Of a stretch of DNA of 6,055 bases, positions 1-6,055 are shown in pieces. Positions within the stretch are counted from its first letter, which is position 1. Every line of letters starts with the position of its first letter. The stretch comes from Escherichia coli (GTDB taxonomy: Bacteria > Pseudomonadota > Gammaproteobacteria > Enterobacterales > Enterobacteriaceae). The stretch is from NCBI RefSeq assembly GCF_048403405.1, contig NZ_CP183132.1. The stretch is one strand, 5' to 3'. Position numbers and translations under genes: made by a program. The notes beneath the pieces were generated by a model that did not search any database, was not told the DNA's origin, and saw only the letters and a list, made by a program, of their open reading frames with translations.

Positions 1-2
1 TC

Positions 3-31
3 TTGAGATCCTTTTTTTCTGCGCGTAATCT
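3..31 (+). promoter_or_regulatory. RNAII (replication preprimer) promoter: -35 TTGAGA (3-8), 17-bp spacer, -10 TAATCT (26-31)
   Basis: The block tcttgagatcctttttttctgcgcgtaatctgctgc matches the pMB1/pBR322 RNAII promoter as I recall it. The hexamers and spacing are read directly. The native upstream context is visible at the second copy (5634-5662). Confidence 0.8.
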
Positions 32-40
32 GCTGCCTGT

Positions 41-144
41 AAACGAAAAAACCGCCTTGCAGGGCGGTTTGATCGAAGGTTAAGTCAGCTTGCAGACTGC
101 TTAACCAGGTAACTGTCTTATGCGAGACGAGTCACCAAAATTGT
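41..144 (-). ncRNA. RNAI: RNAI antisense copy-number control RNA (about 100-105 nt)
   Basis: It is antisense to the RNAII 5' end. The 5' end is at 144 (minus strand ACAATTTTGG, compare pMB1 ACAGTATTTGG), 6 nt downstream of its -10. The 3' end is the stem-loop 70-49 followed by a minus-strand T-run (TTTTTTCGTTT), which acts as an intrinsic terminator. It has the three stem-loops typical of RNAI. Confidence 0.85.
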
Positions 145-150
145 TCTTCT

Positions 151-180
151 AGTGTAGCCGCACTCCGGCAGCCACTTCAA
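151..180 (-). promoter_or_regulatory. RNAI promoter: -35 TTGAAG (180-175), 18-bp spacer, -10 TACACT (156-151)
   Basis: The plus-strand agtgta...cttcaa has the same hexamers and the same 18-bp spacing as the pBR322 RNAI promoter I recall (ctagtgtagccgtagttaggccaccacttcaag). Confidence 0.8.
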
Positions 181-604
181 GTACTCTCTAAATATCTCGC
201 ACATGACTTTTACCAATGGCTGCTGCCAGTGGCGCTTTGTGGTGTCTTTTCCGGGTTGGACCCAAGAGAACAGTTACCGGAGAAGGCGCAGCAGTCGGGC
301 TGAACGGGGGGTTCCTGCATACAGCCCAGCCCGGAGCGAACTGCCTAAGTCGCCCCGAGATACCAGAAGACGTGAGCTATGAGAAAGCGCCACGTGTCCC
401 GTAAGGGAGAAAGGCGGAAAAGGTATCCGGTAATCGATATGGCGGGAACGTGGGGGCGCAGGAGGGAGCGATTCACCGGAAACGGTGATGATCTTTAAGC
501 CACGTCGGGTTTCGCCACCGCTGGCGGATTTCATGGTTGAGCCGCAAGGCTCCCACAGATGCACCGAAAAAGTGTCTGTTTTGTGAAGTCCGTCAGGGGG
601 GCGG

Positions 605-625
605 AGCCTATGGAAAAAGCGCCTC
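605..625 (+). other. oriV: RNA-to-DNA transition point of the ColE1-type origin (approximate)
   Basis: ggagcctatggaaaaa is conserved with pMB1, where the origin maps in the A-run (pBR322 coordinate about 2535). Here the run is at 614-618. Confidence 0.7.
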
Positions 626-734
626 CGGCGCGGCCTTTCCCGGGGTTTCGTTTTTTGCGTACATGTTCTTTCCTGGTTTATCCCCGGGTTCTGTGGATAA
701 CAGGGTTAGCGTTTTTGAGAAAGGAGAGTCCGCT

Positions 735-800
735 CGCCGCAGCCGAACGACCGAGCGTAGCGAGTCAGTGAGCGAGGAAGCGGAAGAGCGCCTGAACTGG
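735..800. other. Conserved post-origin block, possibly the primosome assembly (PriA/n-prime) site region
   Basis: cgaccgagcg.agcgagtcagtgagcgaggaagcggaagagcgcctg is nearly identical to the pBR322 segment downstream of ori. It contains GAAGCGG (777-783), which I recall as part of n-prime recognition sites. The functional assignment is from memory only. Confidence 0.3.
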
Positions 801-869
801 CATTTTCTCCTTACGCATCTGTGCGGCATTTCACACCGGACATGGCGCACTTTTCATACAATCCGCACT

Positions 870-960
870 GATGCCGAATGGTTAAGCCAGTATACACTCC
901 GCTATCGCTACGTGACTGGGTCAGGGCTTCGCCCCGACACCCCAAAGGTCAACGGCCTGA
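870..960 (-). other. oriT: bom / oriT of a MOB-HEN (ColE1-type) mobilisation system; putative nic between 887 and 886 on the minus strand
   Basis: gttaagccagtatacactccgctatcgctacgtgactgggtca (881-923) is almost identical to the pBR322 bom segment. The minus strand reads CTGG/CTTA (890-883), which I recall as the ColE1 nic sequence. The extent and the exact nic position are recalled, not derived. Confidence 0.7.
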
Positions 961-1035
961 CGCGCCCTGGCGGGCTTGTCTGCTCCCGGCATCCGCTCAC
1001 AGACAAGCTGTGACCGTCTCCGGGAGCTGCATGTG

Positions 1036-1227
1036 TCAGCGGTTTTCACCGTCATCCCCGAAGCGTGCGAGGCAACTGCGGTAAAGCTCATCGGCGTGGT
1101 CGTGAAGCGATTCACAGATGTCTGCCTGTTCATCCGCGTCCAGTTCGTTGAGCTTCTCCAGCAGCGTTAATGTCTGGCCTCTGATGAAGCGGGCCATGTT
1201 AAGGGCGGTTTTTTCCTGTTTGGTCAC
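1036..1227 (-). CDS. rop: Rop/Rom, the RNAI-RNAII kissing-complex stabilising protein (63 aa, GTG start)
   Basis: The last 63 codons of the 87-aa ORF read VTKQEKTALNMARFIRGQTLTLLEKLNELDADEQADICESLHDHADELYRSCLARFGDDGENR. This is essentially pBR322 Rop with S to G at residue 17 and a C-terminal L to R change. The GTG at 1227-1225 is preceded by ggaggcatca, as in pBR322. The upstream in-frame ATG at 1299 gives an extension not seen in Rop. Confidence 0.95.
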   Translation of the reverse strand: MTKQEKTALNMARFIRGQTLTLLEKLNELDADEQADICESLHDHADELYRSCLARFGDDGENR

Positions 1228-1258
1228 TGATGCCTCCGTGTAAGGGGGGGTTCTGTTC

Positions 1259-1615
1259 ATGGGGGTAATGATACCGATGAAACGCGAGAGGATGCTCACG
1301 ATACGGGTTACTGATGATGAACATGCCCGGTTACTGGAACGCTGTGAGGGTAAACAACTGGCGGTATGGATGCGGCGGGTCTGCCTGGGTGAGCCGGTTG
1401 CCCGTTCCGGGAAGCTGCCGACACTGGCACCGCCGTTACTGCGTCAGCTGGCCGCCATCGGGAATAACCTTAACCAGACAGCGAGGAAGGTGAACAGCGG
1501 GCAGTGGTCTTCCGGTGACCGGGTTCAGGTGGTGGCCGCACTGATGGCCATCGGGGATGAGCTGCGCCGGCTGCGTCTGGCGGTCAGGGAACAGGGGGCG
1601 CGGGATGATAGTTAA
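1259..1615 (+). CDS. mbeC: MbeC/MobC-family relaxosome accessory protein (ribbon-helix-helix)
   Basis: MKRERMLTIRVTDDEHARLLERCEG forms an RHH-type N-terminus, and AAIGNNLNQTARKVN is the MobC-family motif. The first ~100 nt of this gene survive beside rop in pBR322. The start is ambiguous among the in-frame ATGs at 1259, 1268 and 1277. ATG 1259 has a G-run (1244-1250) 8 nt upstream. The 3' end overlaps the mbeA start by 11 nt. Confidence 0.85.
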   Translation: MGVMIPMKRERMLTIRVTDDEHARLLERCEGKQLAVWMRRVCLGEPVARSGKLPTLAPPLLRQLAAIGNNLNQTARKVNSGQWSSGDRVQVVAALMAIGDELRRLRLAVREQGARDDS

Positions 1616-3170
1616 GTTTCATGCCAGGGGAAAAGGTGGTGGCAGTGGTCCGGTTGATTACCTGCTGGGAAGGGAGCGTAACCGGGAAGGGGCAACGGTG
1701 CTTCAGGGGAATCCGGAAGAGGTCCGGGAACTCATCGATGCCACGCCATTTGCGAAGAAATACACGTCAGGTGTTCTGTCGTTCGCGGAGAAGGAGCTGC
1801 CGCCTGGAGGGCGTGAAAAAGTGATGGCGAGCTTTGAGCGTGTACTGATGCCCGGTCTCGAGAAAAATCAGTACAGCATCCTGTGGGTGGAGCACCAGGA
1901 CAAGGGACGGCTTGAGCTGAATTTTGTCATTCCGAACATGGAGCTACAGACCGGAAAACGCCTCCAGCCGTACTACGACCGGGCAGACAGGCCGAGAATT
2001 GATGCCTGGCAGACGCTGGTGAATCACCATTACGGTCTGCATGACCCCAACGCCCCGGAGAACCGCCGGACGCTGACCCTTCCTGATAACCTGCCGGAAA
2101 CGAAACAGGCGCTTGCTGAGGGCGTCACACGCGGGATAGACGCGCTTTACCATGCCGGAGAGATAAAAGGCCGTCAGGATGTGATTCAGGCGCTCACAGA
2201 GGCGGGGCTTGAAGTGGTCAGGGTGACGCGAAGCAGTATCAGCATTGCAGACCCGAACGGCGGGAGGAATATCAGACTGAAAGGAGCGTTTTATGAGCAA
2301 TCTTTTACAGACGGGCGCGGAGTTCGAGAAAAAGCTGAAAGAGAGAGCCGAATCTACAGAGAAAATGCTGAACGACGAGTTCAGGAAGCTCGAAGAATCT
2401 GTAAACAGGGAACTGACCTCAAACGAATCTTTAATCAGGAACGCTATCAACGACCATACAACAGCCCTGAAAGAACTGCTGGAGAGGTATCAGAAAACGA
2501 CCGTCGATACGATGGACGCGCACTGGAAAACCGTACTGAAAATGAGCGTGAAACGCTGGCTGTGGCTGATTATCGTCTCAGTACTGATGTTTGCCACGAC
2601 CGGGAGTCTGCTGTGGTACCAGGGCATGAAGATAAACGCGAATATGAATATTCTCCGCGAGCAGAAAGAGAGTCTGGAGAAGCTGAACGCGAAGACATGG
2701 GGCGTGCGTTATCACGAGGACAGCAACGGACGTTTTCTGGTGTTGCCGAAGGGGATGAAAGCCGAAACGAACTGGACGAAGGACAACGGCAAACTGAACG
2801 CAGTGAGACTGGTGCAGGAGTGACAGAGCATGACGGAGCTGGAAAGACATTTGCTGAACGCATTAGAGCAACTGCAACAGGACTATATGCAGCGGCTGAA
2901 CGAATGGGAGAACGCCTTCGTGGAATTGCAGAAAATGTTTTCGCTTACGCAACGGGACAACGCGATGCTGAACGGGCGAGTCATGCAGTTGAGTCAGCAG
3001 GTGCAGCACTTGAGCGAGCGGACAGAACGCTTGAGCCAGTTATACAGCGAGAACAGGAGATAAGGGATGAACGGCTGATGCAGGAACGCGAACATGAGTT
3101 ATCTCTGGAGCGGGAGCGTCAGCCGGAAATCCAGGAGCGGACACTGGATGGCCCTTCGCTGGGATGGTGA
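1605..3170 (+). CDS. mbeA: MbeA/MobA relaxase, MOB-HEN family (521 aa from ATG 1605)
   Basis: MIVKFHARGKGGGSGPVDYLLG carries the catalytic Tyr19 (codon 1659-1661). LWVEHQDKGRLELNFVIPN gives His97, Glu104 and Asn106, the HEN motif described for ColE1 MbeA. The ORF-track start at 1557 adds 16 residues that overlap mbeC. ATG 1605 matches the ColE1 N-terminus. Confidence 0.95.
   Translation: MIVKFHARGKGGGSGPVDYLLGRERNREGATVLQGNPEEVRELIDATPFAKKYTSGVLSFAEKELPPGGREKVMASFERVLMPGLEKNQYSILWVEHQDKGRLELNFVIPNMELQTGKRLQPYYDRADRPRIDAWQTLVNHHYGLHDPNAPENRRTLTLPDNLPETKQALAEGVTRGIDALYHAGEIKGRQDVIQALTEAGLEVVRVTRSSISIADPNGGRNIRLKGAFYEQSFTDGRGVREKAERESRIYRENAERRVQEARRICKQGTDLKRIFNQERYQRPYNSPERTAGEVSENDRRYDGRALENRTENERETLAVADYRLSTDVCHDRESAVVPGHEDKREYEYSPRAERESGEAEREDMGRALSRGQQRTFSGVAEGDESRNELDEGQRQTERSETGAGVTEHDGAGKTFAERIRATATGLYAAAERMGERLRGIAENVFAYATGQRDAERASHAVESAGAALERADRTLEPVIQREQEIRDERLMQEREHELSLERERQPEIQERTLDGPSLGW
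2293..2823 (+). CDS. mbeB: MbeB/MobB mobilisation protein, nested in the +1 frame of mbeA (176 aa, one TM segment)
   Basis: AGGAG (2282-2286) lies 6 nt before the ATG. The N-terminal half looks coiled-coil, followed by the hydrophobic segment RWLWLIIVSVLMFATTGSLLWY. Position and size match the known ColE1 mbeB nested inside mbeA. Confidence 0.8.
   Translation: MSNLLQTGAEFEKKLKERAESTEKMLNDEFRKLEESVNRELTSNESLIRNAINDHTTALKELLERYQKTTVDTMDAHWKTVLKMSVKRWLWLIIVSVLMFATTGSLLWYQGMKINANMNILREQKESLEKLNAKTWGVRYHEDSNGRFLVLPKGMKAETNWTKDNGKLNAVRLVQE
2830..3063 (+). CDS. mbeD: MbeD/MobD small mobilisation protein, nested in mbeA in the same frame as mbeB (77 aa)
   Basis: CAGGAG (2815-2820) lies 9 nt before the ATG, which starts 7 nt after the mbeB stop. 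The sequence is heptad-like and helical (LLNALEQLQQDYMQRLNEWENAFVELQKMF). The position matches ColE1 mbeD, which I recall being linked to entry exclusion. Confidence 0.7.
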   Translation: MTELERHLLNALEQLQQDYMQRLNEWENAFVELQKMFSLTQRDNAMLNGRVMQLSQQVQHLSERTERLSQLYSENRR

Positions 3171-3231
3171 AACCATGAAAAATGACGTGTTCAGTGGATT
3201 AAGGCGGGCTAATGTGGCCTGTAGCATCTGG

Positions 3232-3258
3232 TTGCATAGGTATTCATGCGGTTAAAAT
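3232..3258 (+). promoter_or_regulatory. Pcer-like promoter: -35 TTGCAT (3232-3237), 15-bp spacer, -10 TAAAAT (3253-3258)
   Basis: The hexamers are near-consensus with an unusually short 15-bp spacer. This matches the published description of ColE1 Pcer as I remember it. The promoter overlaps the candidate ARG box. Confidence 0.6.
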
Positions 3259-3264
3259 TTATCA

Positions 3265-3345
3265 GGTGCGATCGCGGCAGTTTTTCGGGTGGTTTGTTGC
3301 CATTTTTACCTGTCTGCTGCCGTGATCGCACCGAACGCGTTTTGG
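3265..3345 (+). ncRNA. rcd: Rcd-like small RNA (dimer-induced cell-division checkpoint RNA), ends approximate
   Basis: It lies downstream of the Pcer-like promoter. A long hairpin pairs ggtgcgatcgcggcag (3265-3280) with ctgccgtgatcgcacc (3317-3332): 16 bp with one G-U. It is followed by the palindrome aacgcgtt and a T-run (3340-3343). Confidence 0.5.
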
Positions 3346-3346
3346 C

Positions 3347-3375
3347 GGTGCGTACAATGCGACGTTATGGTAAAT
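3347..3375 (+). other. Xer core: XerC arm GGTGCGTACAA (3347-3357), central region TGCGACG (3358-3364, 7 bp), XerD arm TTATGGTAAAT (3365-3375)
   Basis: Both arms are identical to the ColE1 cer arms (GGTGCGTACAA-TTAAGGGA-TTATGGTAAAT). The central region differs in both sequence and length. Confidence 0.85.
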
Positions 3376-3465
3376 GGAGCGGATTTTCAGGAAGGAGTGA
3401 TACTAACAACTCGAACACTGTGCAAATAATGATTTTTTTAAAATATCGGTAACGATAATAAATTA

Positions 3466-3494
3466 TTTCGTTTTACGCCGGTAATAAATATAAT
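3466..3494 (+). promoter_or_regulatory. Candidate promoter for the cargo operon: perfect -10 TATAAT (3489-3494) with only a weak -35 (TTTCGT 3466-3471 at 17 bp)
   Basis: This is the only consensus -10 in the AT-rich leader upstream of the first cargo gene. TTTACG (3472-3477) is a better -35 but lies only 11 bp away. The call is weak because AT-rich DNA produces such hexamers by chance. Confidence 0.3.
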
Positions 3495-3543
3495 GTAGTT
3501 TCAGTATATAAAAAAATATATGAGGTGTCTTGTGGGAGCTTTC

Positions 3544-4596
3544 ATGAATCTTCAACAACGTATAAATAAACTACCACAATTATCATCCAGTTTTTCATTT
3601 GGAAAAGATATTGATAATATTCATTCATTTATCTTTAACGAAACTTCTAAAGATAAAATTGAAGATTTACTAAGAAAATGGGTGTCAGGCAATCAGCCCT
3701 GTGTATTTGGTAAATTGGCAAGCAAGAAAATTAAAGGGCTTGATTTCCATTTATCTATTGTAAATAGCCCCCAACTATATAATGATGATGGTCATTTGTT
3801 TGATTTTTTGCGTAATGAAAGAGTTCGTTTTAAAGAACGCGCAAGAAGAGGAGAGGTCAGTGCGCATCTCATTTATTTTATTCATCCACAACTTGCCTTT
3901 GCTCGTCCATCAGAAGAGTTAGTGGACATACAAAAATATATTTGTTCGCTGCATATGCCAGAGTGCTATCCAATAAAAGAGGATGTTATTTATACTGAAA
4001 GCGTACCATTTCAGGATAAAGATGGGCTAAAAATATATAAGGCTGGTGTTAATGTTTTTTACTCTTCTGCTCATAGAACAAGAAATCATGATAGAAGAAT
4101 ACCAGGGGGAATACTTATTTCTGTAAATGCCCCGGGGCATTTTATGAGGCTGGCGATAGAAAAAGGTTTCTATAAAGATCAAGAACAAGCGTTAGCGGAT
4201 ATTCGTAACATGACTATTCAGTCTGTTGGTAAGGGTGGGTATTCACATCCGGAAGGGATTTCTACAACATGGCATTCAGAATCTAATTTGGATCGTTTTG
4301 GATGCCCAGTGCACACCGGTAATAGTTCTTATTACAGCGGTTTTTATCATACTGATGTATTAATTCCAGGAGAATTAACTAAGGATGAAAGATTGCTCCA
4401 TGAAATAGAAAATAGTGATCCAATGATCTTCAACTGGAATGTATTGTTTTATGTTTCATTAGAAGAGTTTCCTATAGATGATCCTTATTATGGAGAGTTT
4501 ATTGGTATTCCTGTAGATGATGCATCTATGTTTTTTAACTCCTTTCAACCAAGGAAATTTGAAAACAAACCCCTTTATGAGAAAGAGGATGATTAA
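3544..4596 (+). CDS. Uncharacterised soluble 350-aa protein (cargo gene A), possibly a metal- or heme-dependent enzyme
   Basis: A long ORF in AT-rich DNA. GGGAG (3534-3538) lies 5 nt before ATG 3544. Alternative in-frame starts are ATG 3520 and GTG 3532. There is no signal peptide or TM segment. The protein is His-rich and has four Cys. Motifs include NQPCVFGK (Cys53), C134-x2-H-x3-C141 (CSLHMPEC), H177-RTRN-H182-DRR and GCPVH. I cannot confidently recognise a family. Confidence 0.85.
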   Translation: MNLQQRINKLPQLSSSFSFGKDIDNIHSFIFNETSKDKIEDLLRKWVSGNQPCVFGKLASKKIKGLDFHLSIVNSPQLYNDDGHLFDFLRNERVRFKERARRGEVSAHLIYFIHPQLAFARPSEELVDIQKYICSLHMPECYPIKEDVIYTESVPFQDKDGLKIYKAGVNVFYSSAHRTRNHDRRIPGGILISVNAPGHFMRLAIEKGFYKDQEQALADIRNMTIQSVGKGGYSHPEGISTTWHSESNLDRFGCPVHTGNSSYYSGFYHTDVLIPGELTKDERLLHEIENSDPMIFNWNVLFYVSLEEFPIDDPYYGEFIGIPVDDASMFFNSFQPRKFENKPLYEKEDD

Positions 4597-4597
4597 T

Positions 4598-5464
4598 ATG
4601 ATTAAAGGAATGCTTTTTGCTTTTTTAGCAGCGTTCTCATGGGGGGCAGCTATCGTAATGAGCAAAAAAGGAGTTGAAGAACTAGATGCCGGAGGGGTGT
4701 TTTTCTGGCAGATTTGTAGTGCAGTAATACTATCTTGGATAGTTCTTTTTATAAAAAGAAAAAAACTCCCATTAAACTCAAAAGCGATACTTGCTTATGC
4801 GACAGGCGTTTTTGAACCATTCTTAGCGTATACTTTTACACTCTACGGACTTTATTTTATTTCAGCAGGAAGCGCATCAATTATTTTTTCACTTGAATCA
4901 GTGTTTATATTGGTGTTGTCTGTTCTTATTTGCTCAGTTAAAATTAATTCCCCGCAATATTTTATATTGTTCCTTATAGGTGCAATTGTTGGCAGTATTT
5001 TGGTAGCCTTGCCAGACATCAGTAATGGATCGAATAATATTGTTGGATATTGTCTTGTTGTTGCCGGTGTGTTATCGGCAGCATTTTATGTTGTTATATC
5101 GTCTCGCCTTATTAAATCGTTTGAGCCTATCACATTATTGAGCGGACAGTTGACATTCTCCCTTATACTGTCATCGCTCTTTATTTTTATATCTAAATCA
5201 TCAATTTATCTTCCGTTGGAATCCGTGATTATTGTTTTTTCATCTGGAATATTACAATATTTTTTAGCTTTTTGTTTTTACTTGAACTCCTTGCGTTGGC
5301 TCCCAGTTCATTTGGCAGGGATAATGTTGTACTTTATTCCGCTAGTTGCATTATTTTTGTCATGGTTGTTTTTGGATGAACAATTCACATTCTTACAGGG
5401 GGTAGGATTTATTGTAACTGTGCTAAGTGTATATTTTCTTAACAGAAAATACTCAGAGGAGTAA
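4598..5464 (+). CDS. DMT-superfamily (EamA-like) permease, 288 aa, about 10 TM segments (cargo gene B)
   Basis: ATG 4598 follows the upstream TAA (4594-4596) by 1 nt, with AAGAGGA (4582-4588) 9 nt upstream. The N-terminus GMLFAFLAAFSWGAAIVMSKKG is typical of EamA domains. I count ten hydrophobic segments arranged as two five-TM halves. The ORF-track start at 4517 adds 27 residues overlapping gene A and is unlikely. Confidence 0.9.
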   Translation: MIKGMLFAFLAAFSWGAAIVMSKKGVEELDAGGVFFWQICSAVILSWIVLFIKRKKLPLNSKAILAYATGVFEPFLAYTFTLYGLYFISAGSASIIFSLESVFILVLSVLICSVKINSPQYFILFLIGAIVGSILVALPDISNGSNNIVGYCLVVAGVLSAAFYVVISSRLIKSFEPITLLSGQLTFSLILSSLFIFISKSSIYLPLESVIIVFSSGILQYFLAFCFYLNSLRWLPVHLAGIMLYFIPLVALFLSWLFLDEQFTFLQGVGFIVTVLSVYFLNRKYSEE

Positions 5465-5631
5465 CATTCTGTTCAGGATTGCCCCCCGGCCTCCATCGAT
5501 ACCGTGCCAAATGCACGTAAAAAACGGGAGCGTTTCTGGTGTCGGAATGTAACCAAGGGGGTCAGAGGCGCGCTAAAACGCTCTCAGGGGAGTCAAATAG
5601 AGACGTTTGTAACAAAAAGATCAAAGGATCC

Positions 5632-6055
5632 TCTTGAGATCCTTTTTTTCTGCGCGTAATCTGCTGCCTGTAAACGAAAAAACCGCCTTGCAGGGCGGTT
5701 TGATCGAAGGTTAAGTCAGCTTGCAGACTGCTTAACCAGGTAACTGTCTTATGCGAGACGAGTCACCAAAATTGTTCTTCTAGTGTAGCCGCACTCCGGC
5801 AGCCACTTCAAGTACTCTCTAAATATCTCGCACATGACTTTTACCAATGGCTGCTGCCAGTGGCGCTTTGTGGTGTCTTTTCCGGGTTGGACCCAAGAGA
5901 ACAGTTACCGGAGAAGGCGCAGCAGTCGGGCTGAACGGGGGGTTCCTGCATACAGCCCAGCCCGGAGCGAACTGCCTAAGTCGCCCCGAGATACCAGAAG
6001 ACGTGAGCTATGAGAAAGCGCCACGTGTCCCGTAAGGGAGAAAGGCGGAAAAGGT
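5632..6055. repeat. Terminal redundancy: an exact second copy of 1-424 (RNAII promoter, RNAI, 5' part of RNAII) caused by linearising a circle
   Basis: A base-by-base comparison of 5632-6055 with 1-424 shows identity. The offset of 5631 also maps ORF 216-404 onto 5847-6035. Confidence 0.95.

Follow-up and report, generated by a model that had tools for sequence, protein, structure and literature searches.

Plasmid pJJ1886_3, a ColE1-type plasmid of 5631 bp, carries two genes in the slot between cer and the replication origin, i.e. the same slot that holds the colicin operon in colicin plasmids of this type. We analysed a stretch of 6,055 nt (the window), which has a period of 5631 and, therefore, a self-overlap of 424 nt; the circle is 5631 bp, and a second copy of RNAI at 5674-5774 results from this overlap. 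The features are listed in Table 1.

Table 1. Coordinates of the cargo, its landmarks and neighbouring backbone elements in the window
Feature	Position	Strand	Remark
RNAI, ColE1-type replicon	43..143	-	Rfam RF00106, 56.5 bits; context, not cargo
cer-like XerC/XerD core, GGTGCGTACAA-N7-TTATGGTAAAT	3347..3375		read from sequence; left cargo edge
AT-rich cargo leader	3376..3543	+	weak sigma-70-like site 3403-3430; SD-like GGGAG 3533-3537
Gene A, 350 aa, WP_001053268.1	3544..4596	+	member of unnamed family
Cys53 codon, QPCVFGK motif, candidate axial heme ligand	3700..3702	+	
Motif AHRTRNHDRRIPGG, residues 176-189, after beta-hairpin	4069..4110	+	candidate heme-propionate or substrate site
Motif YHTDVL, residues 268-273, C-terminal extension	4345..4362	+	conserved
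Gene A/gene B junction TAA-t-ATG (TAATATG)	4594..4600	+	SD AAGAGGA at 4582-4588
Gene B, 288 aa, WP_001335763.1, DMT/EamA permease	4598..5464	+	predicted exporter of gene A product
Non-coding tail, ~51% G+C	5465..5613		found in this plasmid lineage only

The backbone is that of a ColE1-type mobilisable plasmid with RNAI, Rop, the Mbe/Mob genes and a cer site. As stated in a preliminary description of this DNA, the part outside the cargo is of ColE1 type; RNAI (Rfam), Rop, MobC, MbeB, MbeD and the relaxase are all present. The Pfam matches are Rop, MobC, MbeB_N, MbeD_MobD and Relaxase, and these genes are also annotated in RefSeq. The core next to the cargo we take to be cer from its agreement with the ColE1 cer consensus. 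The ORFs and annotations of the whole 5631-bp circle include no genes for colicin, immunity or lysis, and none for resistance, toxin-antitoxin or restriction functions; the absence claimed earlier is thus borne out by both the ORF list and the RefSeq annotation.

Within this backbone, the cargo is an AT-rich, two-gene composition island: the G+C content is 34.6% in 3376-5470 vs 55.1% in 1-3375, confirming the earlier claim, and the counts given for 3541-3600 (16/60) and 1381-1440 (41/60) are exact. The limits originally assigned to the cargo hold on the left, where the match to other ColE1-like plasmids stops at 3358-3379 near cer, and for the stop codon of gene B at 5464; however, the lineage-specific block reaches ~5613 and not 5470, and common ColE1 origin-region homology picks up again at ~5614. 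In related plasmids, a colicin lysis gene abuts this right-hand junction. The cargo edges have no flanking direct or inverted repeats and, therefore, a transposon/IS signature was not found. None of the small ORFs in 3376-3543 and 5465-5640 is convincing. Only its agreement with the consensus marks the site in the leader as a promoter, and sites of this kind in the region are not enriched over shuffled sequence.

Gene B contains two EamA repeats (PF00892; Pfam E = 4.6e-44, 150 bits), and a simple Kyte-Doolittle scan gives ~10 hydrophobic segments, i.e. nine strong peaks and one weaker peak. By these features, gene B is a protein of the EamA-type DMT superfamily with two repeats and ~10 predicted TM helices (5+5), as in the DMT exporters EamA, RhtA and YddG. 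Its closest named NCBIfam models are amino-acid exporters, every one below cut-off (TIGR00950, 57.7 vs 230.2 bits; YddG, 20.3 vs 300 bits). The best named matches, i.e. the 2A78 carboxylate/amino acid/amine transporter model and YddG, are weak; gene B is far under every curated DMT subfamily cut-off and represents a subgroup co-evolving with gene A. No sequence match to gene B was found in the PDB.

Genes A and B are coupled as previously described, with the stop codon of gene B (TAA) at 5462-5464, and in many homologous loci A and B overlap by 4 nt. In 28 of the 54 informative loci, an EamA gene lies at most 300 bp from the gene A relative; within 5.4 kb, the number is 40. Moreover, the pairwise identities of A and B co-vary over 30 loci (Mantel r = 0.85, 0/2000 permutations). 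In the closest clade, comprising Edwardsiella, Chamaesiphon and an alphaproteobacterial MAG, the A-B pair stands alone amid unrelated genes. The pair was detected on ColE1-like plasmids, IncF plasmids, a P1-like plasmid and the Edwardsiella chromosome. Thus, the two genes do occur together in other loci and replicons, the adjacency and the co-variation support the pair as a conserved functional unit, and it is supported that the pair moved between replicons as one unit.

The start codon of gene A, ATG 3544, agrees with RefSeq WP_001053268.1 and is preceded by the SD-like GGGAG 6 nt upstream; the alternative upstream ATG 3520 is without an SD. Gene A has no match in Pfam, NCBIfam, PADLOC or PHROGs, and searches of the PDB with the single sequence and a profile gave a sole match at E = 0.31 to an unrelated 95-aa protein. 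Similarly, a Pfam search with 54 gene A family members returned scattered chance matches only. Thus, asking whether gene A matches a well-characterised family gave no such match. The protein is not an orphan as first described: at 90% identity its relatives fall into 106 clusters, at 50% they are covered by 418 representatives, and the family, with at least 418 representative clusters, spans many phyla. Nor is it His/Cys-rich (Cys 4, 1.1%; His 14, 4.0%). Gene A looks like a soluble small-metabolite enzyme, in support of the role in small-metabolite chemistry suggested for it before.

The predicted fold of gene A matches only that of AglA, a YqcI/YcgG heme-thiolate guanidine N-hydroxylase, which is top-ranked in Foldseek (E about 0.01). 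Specifically, the N-terminal ~230 residues are predicted to form a "sandwich" fold for which the only known examples are YqcI/YcgG heme-thiolate guanidine N-hydroxylases such as AglA, DcsA, GntA and ChmN. The weak Foldseek matches (E = 0.04-0.3) include the oxygenase domain of nitric oxide synthase, a heme-thiolate enzyme that acts on arginine by N-hydroxylation and whose ligand loop reads C-x-G-R. All 54 aligned sequences share Cys53, and 197 of 200 superfamily members retain it; the remaining three Cys of gene A are not conserved. The heme ligand is Cys44 in AglA and Cys47 in ChmN (PMC12866846, PMC10849742). From the position of the motif and a non-significant hhalign path, which pairs Cys53 with the cysteine of the YqcI/YcgG motif FxC(V/I)GAK, C53 is a candidate counterpart of AglA Cys44; the motif is QPC in gene A vs FPC in YqcI/YcgG. 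In addition, the AHRTRNHDRRIPGG motif, collinear with SSRxARRFxWP in YqcI/YcgG, contains D183, R185 and P187, which occur in 98-100% of 200 members.

Sequence comparison does not place the gene A family in YqcI/YcgG (PF08892), with Pfam, hhalign and hmmsearch all negative. With a threshold as lenient as E = 10, PF08892 matches neither gene A nor any of the 54 family members; two distant relatives match it below threshold in the part around the Cys (E = 0.015 and 0.11). Using narrow and then broad alignments, hhalign against YqcI/YcgG gave non-significant probabilities of 2.3% and 1.3%; its best path is collinear and places Cys on Cys, yet is statistically non-significant. A reciprocal hmmsearch of the gene A core against the YqcI/YcgG domain gave no significant match. 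Thus, gene A is without detectable sequence similarity to this family (AglA, DcsA, GntA, ChmN, Mhr24, AmbT). Moreover, it is ~110 residues longer than AglA-type proteins (~240 aa), which are too short to contain the extension, and it is usually found with a DMT exporter, whereas YqcI/YcgG enzymes are embedded in a large natural-product cluster.

The two families meet in natural fusions. The 622-aa protein P0109 consists of a gene-A-family domain (E = 2.9e-133) and a true YqcI_YcgG domain (E = 2.5e-47), and a second fusion, P0253, which is broken off by a contig end, was revealed by the reciprocal hmmsearch. The fusion genes are adjoined by PvlArgDC and MOSC. Near gene A relatives, an ArgZ/DDAH-like arginine dihydrolase (PDB 6jv0, E = 4.8e-42) is encoded in 8 loci, an arginase-family gene in 4 and an Orn/DAP/Arg-type decarboxylase in 11; in actinobacteria, the gene A relative is part of a conserved five-gene cluster with decarboxylase, saccharopine-dehydrogenase-like and arginine dihydrolase-like genes. 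Neither these arginine-related neighbourhoods nor the link to a heme-thiolate fold had been foreseen in the preliminary description. Heme-biosynthesis neighbours, encountered in Algicola and one metagenome, were dropped as evidence because adjacency in 2 of the 60 scanned loci, or 2-3 loci in total, is anecdotal.

Since the predicted fold matches that of heme-dependent arginine N-hydroxylases and the enzyme has its own exporter, a modified arginine-like small molecule is probably made and secreted. We give a probability of about one half to the reading that the two cargo genes form a self-contained module that makes and exports an N-oxygenated arginine-like metabolite; the heme, the chemistry, the substrate, the direction of transport and the benefit are inferred. 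Of the module as it was originally proposed, the paired unit, the enzyme-like gene A and export are retained, while the "orphan" and "His/Cys-rich" attributes are lost. In this module, Cys53 would ligate heme, electrons would come from host flavodoxin or ferredoxin systems, and gene A would N-oxygenate L-arginine or a close guanidino/amino metabolite. The 10-helix DMT/EamA permease, made from the same message, would move the product out across the inner membrane, and this export may also prevent product build-up in the producer. More tentatively, and with distinctly less confidence than in the module itself, a multicopy ColE1 plasmid might use host arginine to produce an N-hydroxylated guanidino compound that is secreted, by means of an enzyme that founds a new heme-thiolate family. 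If so, the product could be N-hydroxy-arginine, which inhibits arginase and is a precursor of NO, or an antimetabolite related to it, and the plasmid would correspond to a colicin plasmid that works through a small molecule, possibly affecting competitors or host arginine/NO metabolism. Compared to colicin operons, the cargo is without colicin, immunity and lysis genes, and the predicted agent is a small molecule leaving via a permease, whereas colicins are protein toxins that lysis releases; a role in competition is conceivable for the cargo as well. If gene A is a heme-thiolate N-oxygenase, it would represent a second widespread branch of an enzyme class for which a structure first became available in December 2025, and a very simple system of two genes in E. 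coli, one enzyme and one exporter; also, Col-type plasmids may then carry small-molecule besides protein-based traits for competition or host interaction. Undescribed metabolites derived from arginine are also suggested by the five-gene cluster of actinobacteria and by the natural fusions.

Some neighbouring genes would equally fit detoxification or resistance, in which A alters a toxic guanidino compound or an arginine antimetabolite of external origin and B expels either this compound or what A makes of it, so that the host is protected. In 15 loci, a MarR-type regulator separates A from EamA or flanks them, GNAT acetyltransferases, which are typical of antimetabolite resistance, are next to A in 6 scanned loci, the MOSC family, a member of which is near the fusions, includes enzymes reducing N-hydroxylated compounds, and a resistance trait suits plasmid carriage. 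However, the actinobacterial five-gene cluster looks biosynthetic, the fusion partner YqcI/YcgG is a family of known biosynthetic N-hydroxylases, and no toxic substrate is known for enteric hosts; we regard detoxification as unlikely, at roughly one chance in a handful.

Somewhat less likely still is a make-and-export module with a non-heme enzyme, i.e. a YqcI/YcgG-like scaffold that uses C53 and nearby His/Asp for other chemistry, e.g. as a cysteine nucleophile on a guanidino/amino compound. The lack of a PF08892 link at the sequence level is in line with such an enzyme, as is the C-terminal extension of ~120 residues, which has its own invariant motifs, YHTD and SxGxGG, and the invariant polar residues Y264, H269, D271 and Y303; because of this extension, the chemistry of gene A may differ from N-hydroxylation. 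Similarly, no ferredoxin/reductase partner is encoded on the plasmid or in most of the homologous loci examined. By contrast, the Cys, which is part of a C-x-(F/G)-G-(R/K) loop, sits at the N-terminal position that the heme ligand has in AglA and ChmN, R185 (invariant) and R93 (kept in 95% of members) would suit heme propionates, and the missing redox partner would be explicable by borrowed host reductases, as is common for bacterial heme-thiolate enzymes.

A third alternative is uptake and catabolism, in which B imports a nutrient and A performs the first breakdown step. Some DMT members are importers, and in Algicola a serine/threonine dehydratase-like catabolic enzyme is encoded upstream. 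At the locus with the YqcI/YcgG fusion, however, the gene encoded instead of the DMT protein is that of a MATE efflux pump, from a family known only for export; this favours export, the direction proposed for the permease in the preliminary description. Moreover, the nearest named models for B are the sub-cut-off amino-acid exporters, and a single oxygenation does not make a compound assimilable without further enzymes, none of which is nearby in the closest clade. We consider uptake and catabolism very unlikely.

The cargo was found in 118 of 5426 complete E. coli genomes (~2%), always on plasmids, and these carriers include ST131 strain JJ1886; the cargo also occurs in Salmonella and Klebsiella, and the plasmid is common in E. 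coli of human and animal origin. The papers searched give no phenotype for the plasmid, and no functional study was found in the literature on the plasmid, the protein accessions, pUB2380/O86203 or ColE1 plasmids with EamA. An anti-phage defence or functionless cargo, to which the mobile elements carrying the pair, including a P1-like phage-plasmid, and a weak match of gene B to a PHROGs family of unknown function might point, is the least probable reading, because neither protein matches PADLOC (PADLOC-DB, E up to 1), the pairing is old, spans several phyla and has co-varying sequences, many copies are chromosomal amid ordinary metabolic or housekeeping genes, and, among the 124 matching E. 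coli records listed, both genes are annotated full-length with an identity of at least 99% in all but one. Plasmids of the pJJ1886_3 type are usually dismissed as cryptic; their cargo is nonetheless nearly unchanged across carriers.

The plasmid backbone is of the ColE1 type, and the window is 100% identical to plasmid pJJ1886_3 of E. coli JJ1886 (NC_022662.1). The 6055 bases represent a 5631-bp circle with a 424-base self-overlap; because of this overlap, RNAI (Rfam match, 56.5 bits) and several small ORFs are seen twice, and bases 1-424 recur at 5632-6055. The backbone encodes Rop, MobC, MbeB, MbeD and a relaxase. From the cer consensus, we take 3347-3375 to be a cer-like core. As read, its centre (3358-3364) has 7 nt (TGCGACG) separating the XerC and XerD arms; the central region of ColE1 cer is 8 nt.

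The G+C content is 34.6% over 3376-5470 vs 55.1% over 1-3375, and the local counts of the preliminary description (16/60 at 3541-3600, 41/60 at 1381-1440) were reproduced, as was the junction TAATATG at 4594-4600 between the two cargo genes, with the second gene ending in TAA at 5462-5464. Homology to other ColE1-like plasmids stops at 3358-3379 and picks up again at ~5614; thus, the lineage-specific block comprises 3376-5613. The low-G+C insert at 3376-5470 is real; on the right, the lineage-specific block extends beyond it. The ~150 bases from the permease stop to the origin region (5465-5613) are non-coding, have ~51% G+C and are confined to the pJJ1886_3 lineage (144 PLSDB records). The suggestion that the cargo occupies the colicin slot fits with a colicin lysis gene that abuts the right junction in some related plasmids. 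A search for repeats at the block edges found none.

The first cargo gene, gene A, had no match in Pfam, NCBIfam, PADLOC, PHROGs or PDB sequences. Nevertheless, its product is neither an orphan nor His/Cys-rich, as had been described: the family comprises 106 clusters at 90% identity and at least 418 representatives at 50%, with members in Proteobacteria, Actinomycetota, Cyanobacteria, Acidobacteria and candidate phyla, and there are just 4 Cys and 14 His among the 350 residues. The motifs W..QPCxFG, AHRTRNHDRRxPGG, SxGxGG and YHTDVL are strongly conserved. Among 200 relatives, the sole conserved Cys, C53, is kept in 197, R185 does not vary and R93 is present in 95%.

The AlphaFold2 model of gene A is confident (pLDDT 92, pTM 0.92), and in a Foldseek search against the PDB its top match was AglA (E ~0.01), followed by weak matches to NOS oxygenases. 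AglA and ChmN are YqcI/YcgG (Pfam PF08892) heme-thiolate guanidine N-hydroxylases with Cys as the axial heme ligand; in ChmN, whose substrate is free L-arginine, this residue is Cys47 (PMC10849742). C53 of gene A is part of a C-x-F-G-(R/K) loop at an N-terminal distance similar to that of ChmN Cys47; a conserved extension of ~120 residues follows the AglA-aligning region. By sequence, gene A does not belong to PF08892: the Pfam model matched 0/54 family members, hhalign against YqcI/YcgG gave a probability of 1-2%, and comparing the gene A core with the YqcI/YcgG domain by reciprocal hmmsearch gave nothing significant. The best, non-significant hhalign path is collinear and places QPC on the YqcI/YcgG FxC, P187 on an invariant Pro and N195 on an invariant Asn; moreover, PF08892 has sub-threshold matches over the Cys region in two distant relatives. 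Because the sequence tests were negative and the extension is conserved, we treat the gene A family as separate and unnamed, with a predicted YqcI/YcgG fold.

The second cargo gene, gene B, contains two EamA repeats (Pfam E = 4.6e-44) and ~10 hydrophobic segments, and therefore encodes a DMT permease. No named transporter model gave it a score above the cut-off, and no sequence relative was found in the PDB.

In a neighbourhood scan with one genome per species, 63 loci contained a gene A relative, 54 of them with usable flanks. The two genes occur together elsewhere: a gene-B-like EamA gene lies within 300 bp in 28/54 loci, within 1.2 kb in 32, where a MarR regulator often intervenes, and within 5.4 kb in 40. 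The nearby EamA gene is usually downstream and co-oriented, often with a 4-nt overlap. Across 30 loci, pairs with more similar A proteins also have more similar B proteins (Mantel r = 0.85, 0/2000 permutations); shared species history contributes to this value. The clade nearest to the plasmid genes comprises Edwardsiella hoshinae (63% identity, in a chromosomal low-GC islet), Chamaesiphon, an alphaproteobacterial MAG and Algicola. In the first three, the neighbours are unrelated housekeeping genes, so that two genes are enough; in Algicola, the upstream neighbours include one dehydratase-like and one GNAT gene. Moreover, a 75%-identity variant adjoins IS1 on IncF plasmids, and a P1-like Xenorhabdus phage-plasmid carries the pair in reversed order.

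Coordinates of the cargo genes and of comparison loci (L-numbers, each with its own coordinates)
Feature	Position	Strand	Remarks
Gene A	ATG 3544	+	350 aa; SD-like GGGAG; start agrees with RefSeq
Gene B	ATG 4598	+	288 aa; RefSeq annotation of pJJ1886_3
Pair, IncF plasmid	L011 6989-8915
Pair, Edwardsiella	L016 6983-8916
Pair, Xenorhabdus	L007 6656-9053
Fusion P0109	L012 2530-4398		soil-metagenome protein
Fusion P0253	L079 2-907		soil-metagenome protein
Actinobacterial cluster	~7000-13000 in each of L024, L026, L028, L029, L031, L033, L037, L046, L065
aph(3')-Ia derivative	L080 2606-4356		NZ_CP018114.1

Three lines of evidence point to arginine/guanidino chemistry. First, P0109 (622 aa) is a fusion of a gene-A-family domain with a bona fide YqcI_YcgG domain (E = 2.5e-47); the genes downstream encode a protein weakly resembling DDAH, a MATE efflux pump, an OprB porin and a MOSC protein. 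The second fusion, P0253, is contig-truncated, and the genes after it encode a pyruvoyl arginine decarboxylase and a MOSC protein. A Rieske oxygenase is also among the neighbours of the fusions. Second, a conserved cluster in 8-11 actinobacterial genomes combines gene A with an ArgZ/DDAH-like arginine dihydrolase (PDB 6jv0, E = 4.8e-42), an Orn/DAP-type decarboxylase, a saccharopine-dehydrogenase-like gene and an EamA gene, and looks like an undescribed arginine-derived pathway; some copies have an added arginase, MarR or methyltransferase gene. Third, four loci have an arginase-family gene next to gene A.

The best-supported prediction is that the cargo is a make-and-export module, in which gene A, as a putative heme-thiolate oxygenase, would act on arginine or a closely related compound, and gene B would be the predicted exporter of its product. 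Of the original make-and-export idea, which holds in part and has become more specific, the conserved pairing with EamA stands and the export direction is favoured, without the orphan, His/Cys-rich enzyme. Alternatively, the pair could detoxify or expel an exogenous guanidino toxin, with which the MarR and GNAT neighbours fit, or gene A could perform non-heme chemistry on the shared scaffold. Uptake and catabolism is a further rival; export is favoured because the MATE efflux pump takes the place of the DMT permease in the fusion locus. Phage defence is disfavoured by the lack of a PADLOC match. The literature searched reported no function for either gene. The common 'cryptic' plasmid may carry an enzyme of an unnamed family with the newly defined YqcI/YcgG fold and a dedicated exporter, and make-and-export is directly testable in E. 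coli with two genes.

The cargo was present in 118/5426 complete E. coli genomes, on plasmids in every case and on chromosomes in none, and also in Salmonella and Klebsiella; identity was at least 99% in all matching records but one. In 5310-bp derivatives, aph(3')-Ia replaces most of the cargo; all that NZ_CP018114.1 retains is the initial 283 nt of gene A plus the 5475-5615 tail. Such derivatives are probably the 'X' kanamycin-resistance plasmids of PMC5841774. Finally, PLSDB records NZ_CP146562.1 (11262 bp) and NZ_CP183122.1 (11254 bp) have ~2x the 5631-bp length and several cargo matches each; such records probably represent plasmid dimers or duplications introduced by assembly.
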